DNA of 64,000 nt from Gammaproteobacteria bacterium (GTDB taxonomy: Bacteria > Pseudomonadota > Gammaproteobacteria > JAJDYQ01). The notes beneath the pieces are model-generated. The model was not told the DNA's origin, did no database searches, and saw only the letters and a program-made list of their open reading frames with translations. Each line of letters opens with the position of its first letter. The stretch's first letter is position 1. Below are positions 12,932 through 13,069 of this stretch, one piece after another. The stretch covers positions 1,707,638 to 1,771,637 of the forward strand of contig OY759969.1 in the NCBI GenBank assembly GCA_963662865.1. Direction: 5' to 3'. Both the position numbers and the translations under genes were made by a program.

Positions 12932-13069
12932 CTAATCGACGGCGAGGCTCAGGCCGAATATCTCGATTGGGGGGGGGGGGGGGGGGGGGGGGGGGGGGGG
13001 GGGGGGGGGGGGGGGGGGTATTAAATTGTGTATGGCGCTTGTGGCGCGTTTTACGGGCATTGTGACCAT
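12932..13069 (-). CDS. 5' leader segment of the autotransporter-1 gene (start codon, 17-aa leader, 17 Pro), out of frame with the body as sequenced
   Basis: AGGAG-N8-ATG (13069), then MVTMPVKRATSAIHNLI-P17-IEIFGLSLAVD-TAG. The leader is homologous to the N-terminus of paralog 2 (MVKMHLKRATGDLHNLM-P14-...). Confidence 0.5.
   Translation of the reverse strand: MVTMPVKRATSAIHNLIPPPPPPPPPPPPPPPPPIEIFGLSLAVD
12969..13018. repeat. homopolymeric tract: G50 on the plus strand, C50 on the coding strand
   Basis: Uninterrupted G run, hand counted (2+40+8 nt) and consistent with the 17 Pro in the ORF track. The length may be unreliable in any assembly. Confidence 0.9.

Follow-up and report, generated by a model that had tools for sequence, protein, structure and literature searches.

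What does a run of 50 cytosines do at the 5' end of an autotransporter gene? The run lies on the minus strand of a 64,000-nucleotide (nt) stretch of a gammaproteobacterial genome (contig OY759969.1, positions 1,707,638 to 1,771,637), here called the window, where it precedes the body of the first of two related autotransporter genes, paralog 1 and paralog 2. An initial annotation, made from the letters of the window, had proposed that expression of paralog 1 depends on the length of this tract. Our analysis points the same way: C50 is probably the hypermutable part of a contingency switch that makes a classical autotransporter adhesin phase-variable at the level of translation. The ribosome would start at the ATG of a short leader (13069), behind a Shine-Dalgarno (SD) sequence, and would pass the poly-C as polyproline, entering the extended signal peptide only if the tract length, n, is divisible by 3. 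Any other length would make it stop at TGA 12951-12949 or TAG 12934-12932, and no exportable protein would result. Slipped-strand mispairing in replication would alter the length of the tract; we infer that such changes come often and can be reversed, and that the leader ATG serves as the start in vivo.

Tract length and reading frame in paralog 1

Direct re-reading bore out the uninterrupted G50 on the plus strand, C50 on the coding strand, and the AGGAG-N8-ATG arrangement (ATG 13069-13067) followed by a 17-codon leader on the minus strand (Table 1). The tract begins 51 nt past the ATG. Only two long homopolymers were found in the window, this one and a G38 run (51391-51428) belonging to paralog 2; since the remaining runs reach at most G9 and T8, chance is excluded for both. 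The G9 run (491-499), which lies within an intact 250-amino-acid (aa) open reading frame (ORF; 74-826, minus strand), is the sole other G/C homopolymer of at least 8 nt.

As sequenced, the leader frame runs through 17 proline codons (16 CCC and one CCA) and the residues IEIFGLSLAVD to a TAG. The 1467-aa body occupies a different frame, one that is open back through the tract, and the first ATG, GTG or TTG after its upstream stop is GTG 12866, with no earlier start. This codon falls in the h-region of the signal peptide, and initiation there leaves MLLVGLAAPAFA without the charged n-region. In a tract-length simulation, C48, C51 and any other n = 0 mod 3 joined the leader to the full ORF and gave products of 1524-1535 aa, whereas all other lengths gave products of 29-46 aa that ended at the TGA for n = 1 mod 3 and at the TAG for n = 2 mod 3, the phase of the sequenced tract. 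Simulated changes other than multiples of 3 toggled the gene between the full ORF and early stops. In both paralogs the simple repeat stands in a translated region near the 5' end. These readings agree with what the initial annotation had described.

Table 1. Features of the two window loci and of repeat arrays at the related loci L002 to L005 (array positions refer to each related locus)
Feature	Locus	Position	Strand	Remarks
C50 homopolymer (G50 on plus strand)	Paralog 1	12969..13018	-	Proposed hypermutable element; polyproline in each reading frame
Shine-Dalgarno AGGAG	Paralog 1	13078..13082	-	8 nt before leader ATG; direct reading
17-codon leader MVTMPVKRATSAIHNLI	Paralog 1	13019..13069	-	Sole canonical start for paralog 1; same leader on P0036
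OFF-frame read-out as sequenced, IEIFGLSLAVD + TAG (12934-12932)	Paralog 1	12932..12968	-	Homologous to the in-frame NGVFMLSLATD of paralog 2
Body-frame presequence NRDIRPEPRRRLAQHPAFRRFASTLLCLRRGLAAVLLVGLAAPAFA	Paralog 1	12831..12968	-	Cleavage expected before Q; charged n-region, hydrophobic core, AFA
Body ORF, 1467 aa from GTG 12866	Paralog 1	8463..12866	-	Calx-beta-like repetitive passenger and C-terminal beta-domain (about 8463-9500)
Candidate promoter TTGCAA (13255-13250)-N17-TAAAGT (13232-13227)	Paralog 1	13227..13255	-	Putative
Autotransporter ORF, 3597 aa	Paralog 2	40695..51488	-	PF03797, 42.3 bits on C-terminal 351 aa
C38 tract, after CCT	Paralog 2	51391..51428	-	Encodes 14 Pro; in frame as sequenced
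Shine-Dalgarno AGAGGA (51494-51489) and leader MTMVKMHLKRATGDLHNLM	Paralog 2	51429..51494	-	ATG 51488 or 51482
Internal ATG 51377-51375 just past tract; TGA 51373-51371 in +1 frame	Paralog 2	51371..51377	-	Conserved start in related genes; absent from paralog 1
Candidate promoter TTGCAA-N17-TAAAGT	Paralog 2	51682..51710	-	Putative
Array, unit ATCGCCGG	L002	5788-5977		23.8 copies
Array, unit ATCGCCGG	L003, first gene	5828-5977		18.8 copies
Array, unit GGGACGCC	L003, second giant gene	2827-3013		23.4 copies
Array, unit GCCGGATC (= ATCGCCGG in shifted register)	L004	5239-5977		92.4 copies, 739 bp
Array, unit ATCGCCGG	L005	5780-5977		24.8 copies

The presequence and product of paralog 1

When judged by eye, the body frame encodes a signal peptide with an RRGL n-region, an AAVLLVGLAAP core and an AFA|Q site, behind a long charged extension. 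The start lies unusually far upstream, by a 46-residue presequence plus the polyproline and the leader. ESPR (PF13018) gave no match either to the 3597-aa paralog 2 from its leader ATG (E <= 0.001) or to P0036, an ortholog of paralog 1 described below, with its N-terminus (E <= 1); the long presequence is not the Pfam ESPR motif but an extension peculiar to this lineage. Because leader, polyproline and presequence all precede AFA|Q, changes of 3 nt should be harmless to the mature adhesin, and since in-frame changes would cost nothing, the tract may have been free to grow so long.

The identification of both genes as autotransporters held up when their C-terminal pieces were scanned in isolation, with PF03797 (cut-off, 26 bits) scoring 43.8 bits on the last 345 aa of paralog 1 and also passing on paralog 2; homologs of the paralog C-terminus have PF03797 in precomputed annotation. 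Whole-protein Pfam and NCBIfam scans missed the beta-domain and returned weak fn3/Calx-beta matches only, and a PDB sequence search with the barrel found nothing meaningful. Paralog 1 ends in an aromatic residue (...QWKLRW), and its 4.4-kb body ORF has no internal stop. Unlike the usual classical autotransporter passenger, that of paralog 1 (about 1100 aa) is not a pertactin-like beta-helix; it is composed of repeated Calx-beta/fn3-like modules, weakly matched in the window proteins and with Calx-beta at 84 bits in P0036. The product is presumably an adhesin. Within the passenger, 9925-10613 is a tandem duplication of 360 nt (1.9 copies at 84% identity). P0036 exceeds paralog 1 by 166 aa, and module number therefore differs between the relatives.

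A second tract, in frame as sequenced, in paralog 2

Paralog 2 has an SD sequence, with GAGGA 6 nt before its ATG, and a leader that continues in a single frame through CCT and C38 into NGVFMLSLATDTGRRSASHRF... and a signal peptide. In the simulation it was ON at n = 2 mod 3, and it is ON as sequenced (n = 38). The regions upstream of the two paralogs align at 76% identity, and an 11-mer adjoining the tract, CACAATTTAAT, is common to both. Both tracts are pure while the flanks have diverged by 24%, which favours continuing slippage; we take it from this comparison that slippage may still be under way at both.

The two loci differ in one further respect. Just past its tract, paralog 2 has an internal ATG that is conserved in related genes, and paralog 1 instead reads GGC CTG at the corresponding position. 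Paralog 1 has no tract-independent start for a functional product, whereas paralog 2 does (ATG 51377). Alignment also showed that the 1-nt indel noted earlier between tract and signal peptide is real: a 1-nt deletion past the OFF-frame IEIFGLSLAVD puts paralog 1 into its body frame.

Candidate promoters precede both genes. Their hexamers are invariant between the paralogs and the spacer diverges; they match 8/12 consensus positions, just under the scan threshold, and were therefore unlisted by the scan. An in-frame ATG (13208-13210), just 3' of the candidate -10 element of paralog 1 and with no obvious SD sequence, lengthens the small OFF-state ORF to 92 aa (12932-13210). Directly upstream of the paralog 2 SD sequence lies a palindromic hairpin, AAGCGGCCCGCAAGGCCGCTT (51510-51530), flagged as terminator-like on the plus strand, where no gene needs terminating; a weaker, partly conserved counterpart is found in paralog 1 near 13101-13119. 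The window is 54.9% G+C overall. The 8-kb bins ruled by the autotransporter genes (8001-16000 and 40001-48000) have 60-64% G+C, the bin with the 5' end of paralog 2 has 56%, and the remaining bins mostly have 48-54%.

Shorter in-frame tracts in a close relative

A C-terminal search identified a close relative, represented by P0005 (88% identity) on a 2,573,357-bp contig. Its cluster mate P0036, a 1633-aa protein of the same relative whose body is likewise 88% identical to that of paralog 1, begins MVTMPVKHATSAIHNLI-PPPPPP-NRDIRPEPRRRLAQHPAFRRFASTLLCLRRGLAAVLLVGLAAPAFAQ, with the same leader and the same body frame but 6 prolines in place of 17. After the six prolines it goes on as NRDIRPEPRRRLAQHP...AFA|Q, and all 46 presequence residues of paralog 1 are identical in it. 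The initial annotation had taken the indel and the TAG as a hint of a silent or decaying copy, and our own first reading went further, treating the 1-nt deletion, and not the tract, as the true frameshift and paralog 1 as a pseudogene; the intact P0036 overturned our reading and resolves the complication of the indel. Because P0036 uses the body frame of the window gene, the indel is not a lesion. It belongs to the lineage and shifted the ON phase: genes of the paralog 2 type are ON at n = 2 mod 3, this type at n = 0 mod 3.

When the first 90 residues of paralog 2 were used in an exhaustive search without a profile, four more proteins came up on the same contig. One of them, P0038, reads MMTKPLQAATGDLHNLM-P8-NGVFMLSLATDTGRRSASHRF..., its leader fused through 8 prolines as opposed to 14 in the window; both it and paralog 2 are headed by leaders related to that of paralog 1. 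The other three (P0039, P0040 and P0051) were called from the ATG just past the tract, and their start, MLSLA(T/I)DTGRRSA, is conserved. This brings the paralogs of the relative to at least five, and their states are mixed. If every proline codon is CCC, its two fused tracts would be about C18 and C20, as estimated from protein. The differences in tract length among relatives (17 versus 6 prolines, 14 versus 8) lend support to what a contingency locus would predict. Repeat number differs among the homologs, and both ON and OFF are seen, in the relative at the protein level only; as far as comparison of sequences can tell, this is the usual in silico signature of a phase-variable gene. Together with the simulation, the shorter in-frame tracts support the earlier proposal that tract length sets the frame according to the logic of a slipped-strand switch.

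Other searches added little. P0007 and P0008 lie at contig ends and their 5' ends are missing. When an alignment of three leader/presequence N-termini was used as a protein query against cluster representatives, nothing was found. The pattern CACAATTTAAT-N0-6-C12 had a single match in genome contigs (596 Gb), at 652-679 of L001 (OZ241354.1, a Ca. Azotimanducaceae metagenome-assembled genome), where CACAATTTAATG plus C16 lies upstream of a gene for a 170-aa membrane protein. This 12-mer adjoins the paralog 2 tract, and paralog 1 has A at its last position. We rejected the match as probably due to chance; blastn found no other similarity to the window there. Metagenome contigs scanned for leader plus C-tract likewise gave a single match (L010), an AT-rich chance match.

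The family decays as well as expands. A circular 2,513,604-bp contig (ERZ25070917) has at least five short family members of 347-575 aa; the two loci examined there, L006 and L007, are apparently barrel-only remnants without repeats, and no long homopolymer was found in 43 kb of the related genome with the barrel-only copies.

Octanucleotide arrays in GC-rich homologs

Homologs of the paralog 2 N-terminal passenger domain (53-61% identity) were found on GC-rich long-read metagenome contigs. In the slot held by poly-C in the window these genes have perfect 8-nt arrays that end about 24 nt before an ATG. The barrel region at its C-terminus likewise links the L003 gene to paralog 2 (33% identity). 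On this comparison, a hypermutable repeat in this slot appears to be a family trait whose unit has been replaced in evolution. The 739-bp array of L004 is of exceptional length for a bacterial simple repeat.

At the GC-rich loci the main ORF starts on its own ATG, inside a conserved GGTCATGA. One phase of the array fuses to the main ORF, another ends at the TGA of an ATGA, and the third meets a stop roughly 50 nt inside the gene. The window offers parallels in the TGA that follows the internal ATG of paralog 2 (51373-51371) and in TGA 12951-12949 of paralog 1. It is speculation that the phases encode a three-state logic.

Alternative explanations

Could the tract be real and its length miscalled? 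The true modal length would then be 48 or 51 and paralog 1 simply ON or, in the extreme version, the run would be wholly an artefact of assembly. Indels in long-read consensus sequences concentrate in homopolymers, and the consensus length of a 50-nt homopolymer is reliable only to about +-1-2 nt. Judging by their contig names (ctg125689_254x_c), the related genomes are long-read metagenome assemblies, and the window probably is one too. Because the consensus may err by 1-2 bases, the OFF state of paralog 1 at n = 50 is provisional. The presence of the tract is secure, however: the whole-artefact version is excluded by two tracts at homologous sites of diverged paralogs and by independent assemblies of the relative that encode polyproline at the same site. 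We regard a miscall as rather unlikely, and it would alter the state of the gene only, not the mechanism.

A different possibility, and one that we hold to be unlikely, is that the tract is a leaky attenuator, a rheostat and not a binary switch. Slippage would give mRNAs in all frames, EF-P-dependent passage through prolines would throttle translation, and output would be inverse to tract length and largely independent of n mod 3. The tract does encode polyproline in all frames, and proline runs stall ribosomes unless EF-P assists. RNA polymerase slippage on long homopolymers and the rescue of frameshifts by it are established (PMC5009743, PMC4256274, PMC5574713), and expression of HMW1A is graded by repeat length (PMC12721329). 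In this family the in-frame fraction is about 1/3, with no sign of selection for frame. Against these points, documented slippage is mostly on A/T runs, unlike C50, and a rheostat leaves unexplained why, in each paralog, either OFF frame runs into a stop soon after the tract. The two mechanisms are in any case compatible and not exclusive.

That paralog 1 is a silent or decaying copy, its tract having run away in length under relaxed selection, we consider very unlikely. It is out of frame as sequenced, it has the longest tract, it has lost the internal ATG kept by paralog 2, and a related genome contains family remnants that keep only the barrel; moreover, the gene call at the longest GC-rich array (92 copies, 739 bp) has 216 aa and looks truncated, with an unrelated opposite-strand gene directly after it. 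On the other side, the 4.4-kb body is free of stops, the ortholog of the same architecture is an intact ORF fused in frame, the presequence is identical in the two genomes, and a single slippage event would bring the frame back.

A comparably poor prospect is that the repeat is an untranslated element, in the 5'-untranslated region (5'-UTR) or near the promoter as upstream of hmw1A, with the leader ORF fortuitous, transcription from an AT-rich hexamer abutting the tract, and translation starting downstream. Such a -10-like hexamer (TTTAAT, GATAAT, TATAAT or TACAAT) is indeed found 0-5 nt before the repeat at 7/7 loci, in differing frames (13019-13024 and 51432-51437 in the window), and TTGACA lies 20-30 nt further upstream in 4/5 GC-rich loci. 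The ATG past the array in the GC-rich genes and the conserved ATG past the tract in genes of the paralog 2 type would also suit a downstream start. Yet the -35/-10 spacings (20, 23 and 30 nt) are unfit for sigma-70, and a promoter scan found no sigma-70-like pair bracketing either tract. Neither paralog 1 nor P0036 offers a start codon past the tract although their ORFs are intact, and well-spaced SD-ATG pairs stand on both window leaders. An untranslated repeat of the hmw1A type thus does not fit paralog 1 or P0036, and could apply to paralog 2 and the GC-rich relatives. RNA folding around the tracts and 8-nt arrays gave none more stable than shuffled controls (z-scores +1.1, -0.4, -1.2 and +4.9); the tract was unpaired, with no hmw-like hairpin or G-rich partner. 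The hairpin and RNase III mechanism of hmw1A (PMC12721329) is not supported, as no such fold is predicted. A promoter-spacer switch was rejected because there is no flanking hexamer pair and a tract of 38-50 nt exceeds any functional spacer.

Several observations weigh against the contingency switch that we prefer. Tracts of 38-50 nt should provoke heavy slippage by RNA polymerase, in which case the frame of the DNA may matter less, and 14-17 consecutive prolines should stall ribosomes, in which case expression could be graded; from established knowledge, both effects predict an output that falls with length and a leak in the OFF phases. Genes of the paralog 2 type keep a conserved ATG past the tract, and the leader is perhaps not obligatory there. 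The relative is about 11% diverged in protein, enough for the length difference to have accrued slowly, and it is known from proteins alone, with C18 and C20 presuming prolines that are all CCC. The in-frame members, 3/7 of the family, represent no departure from the 1/3 expected by chance. Finally, the hexamer at the repeat hints at a DNA-level junction role, possibly as a second promoter.

A broader idea, which we offer tentatively and think improbable as a whole, treats the poly-C as one variant of a hypermutable cassette that keeps its position and swaps its repeat unit, with three-outcome phases and an output blurred by slippage and stalling. The cassette would control a whole family of giant autotransporters of uncultured, symbiont-like bacteria, a joint reading that we hold just as tentatively. 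The slot would lie between the short leader ORF (or the -10-like hexamer) and the presequence, with C18-50 in one lineage and (GGATCGCC)19-92 or (GGGACGCC)23 arrays in others. One phase would fuse the leader to the main ORF; a second would place a stop overlapping or abutting the main ATG (ATGA, ATGTTGA), from which coupled re-initiation could follow; and a third would read past and occlude the start. With RNA polymerase slippage and polyproline stalling that depends on EF-P acting as well, output would follow length only in a probabilistic way.

Comparison with known switches

Homopolymer-switched autotransporters include NalP and MspA of Neisseria meningitidis (PMC3723659), tcfA and bapC of Bordetella pertussis (PMC1891110), TabA2 with G(13) and TahA2 with G(20) of Haemophilus influenzae biogroup aegyptius (PMC3309571) and badE of Bartonella (PMC11466379). 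In Campylobacter, poly-G tracts peak at 9-10 and 13-15 is rare (PMC6321876). TahA2 is the longest coding example we found (PMC3309571), and the statement of the initial annotation that the tract is several-fold longer than known switches is therefore broadly right: C50 is two to five times the usual length. As in those autotransporters, a homopolymer (G/C, or A) lies in the 5' part of the frame, +-1 nt toggles the full-length ORF, and length varies between strains. Unlike those tracts of about 7-20 nt, the ones described here have 38 and 50 nt and divide a short leader of its own from an extended presequence, and their 14-17 prolines would be removed with the signal peptide. The known examples belong to vertebrate pathogens, whereas the host here resembles a thiotrophic symbiont.

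Neisseria Opa (CTCTT pentamers) and PilC (poly-G) also have the repeat in a cleaved presequence, where in-frame changes spare the mature protein. Our tracts share that placement but differ in repeat unit and length, and they lie upstream of the n-region and not inside the hydrophobic core.

The closest analogue of the 8-nt arrays in the GC-rich relatives is provided by hmw1A and hmw2A of H. influenzae, which have upstream repeats of 7 bp (ATCTTTC) or, in biogroup aegyptius, of 8 bp (GCATCATC, 12-15 copies; PMC3309571), with hmw1A expression graded by copy number (PMC12721329). Both cases place a long perfect repeat, with octanucleotide units, behind the promoter of a giant adhesin gene and ahead of its coding region. 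HMW1A, however, belongs to the two-partner-secretion adhesins and is not an autotransporter, its repeat is untranslated and works via a 5'-UTR hairpin cut by RNase III, and, unlike hmw1A, paralog 1 has no start codon downstream of its tract.

Homopolymers in promoter spacers, such as the poly-C of Bordetella fim and the tracts of Neisseria opc, porA and fetA, likewise let poly-C/G control a surface protein, but they do so by setting -35/-10 or activator-to-promoter spacing. A last comparison is the rescue of frameshifted genes by slippage, described for poly-A in Buchnera and Blochmannia and for Citrobacter tssM (PMC5009743, PMC4256274, PMC3017870). As there, a long homopolymer in a symbiont gene would give some in-frame mRNA from out-of-frame DNA; those cases, unlike ours, concern A/T runs of about 9-11 nt in gene bodies and not C38-50 at the 5' end of adhesin genes.

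Our verdict is that the locus is probably of a known kind, a slipped-strand phase-variable adhesin with an extreme tract. Four features are new: the length of 38-50 nt; the site of the tract, which encodes polyproline and parts a leader of its own from an extended presequence; repeat units that turn over at a conserved slot, with arrays of up to 739 bp; and the host.

Genomic context and implications

The window suggests a particular kind of host. A sulfur-globule-protein-like ORF (PF17228; 36941-37678, plus strand) suggests a sulfur-oxidising lifestyle, and an ankyrin/TPR repeat protein (62096-63997, minus strand) is of a sort typical of host-associated bacteria. An HMW1C-like N-glycosyltransferase is encoded at 24493-26421 (minus strand; HMW1C_N, 85 bits; HMw1_D2, 80 bits); as enzymes of the HMW1C family glycosylate large adhesins, both autotransporters are plausible substrates. 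The window shows rsmI-lpoA synteny, and the relatives have genomes of some 2.5 Mb, including a circular one with 254x coverage. On the strength of these three genes, the synteny and the size of the related genomes, the organism would appear to be a thiotrophic, host-associated gammaproteobacterium.

Phase-variable adhesins are textbook knowledge for mucosal pathogens, but there is little documentation of them in chemosynthetic symbionts or others from the environment, for which contact with the host surface and escape from recognition by host or phage matter equally. If the tract truly switches, at least two giant adhesins would be independently switchable here and at least five in the relative, a combinatorial surface repertoire. 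Lengths of 38-50 nt are far beyond the 7-20-nt range behind mutation-rate models of homopolymer switching, and they raise the questions of how stable such tracts are, whether slippage erases the genetic state, and how ribosomes get through 14-17 prolines. In practice, gene callers split or truncate such genes, and errors in homopolymer length flip their apparent state in long-read metagenome-assembled genomes.

Two further repeats were seen in the window, in which GC skew was uninformative as to replication orientation. An 18-nt tandem repeat, GGTTACGGTACGCCCCCC (9.8 copies, 90% matches), lies at 37382-37557 within the sulfur-globule-protein-like ORF, and 339-nt tandem repeats with 98% identity lie within the ankyrin/TPR gene, extending over 62712-64000 for 3.8 copies and continuing past the end of the window.

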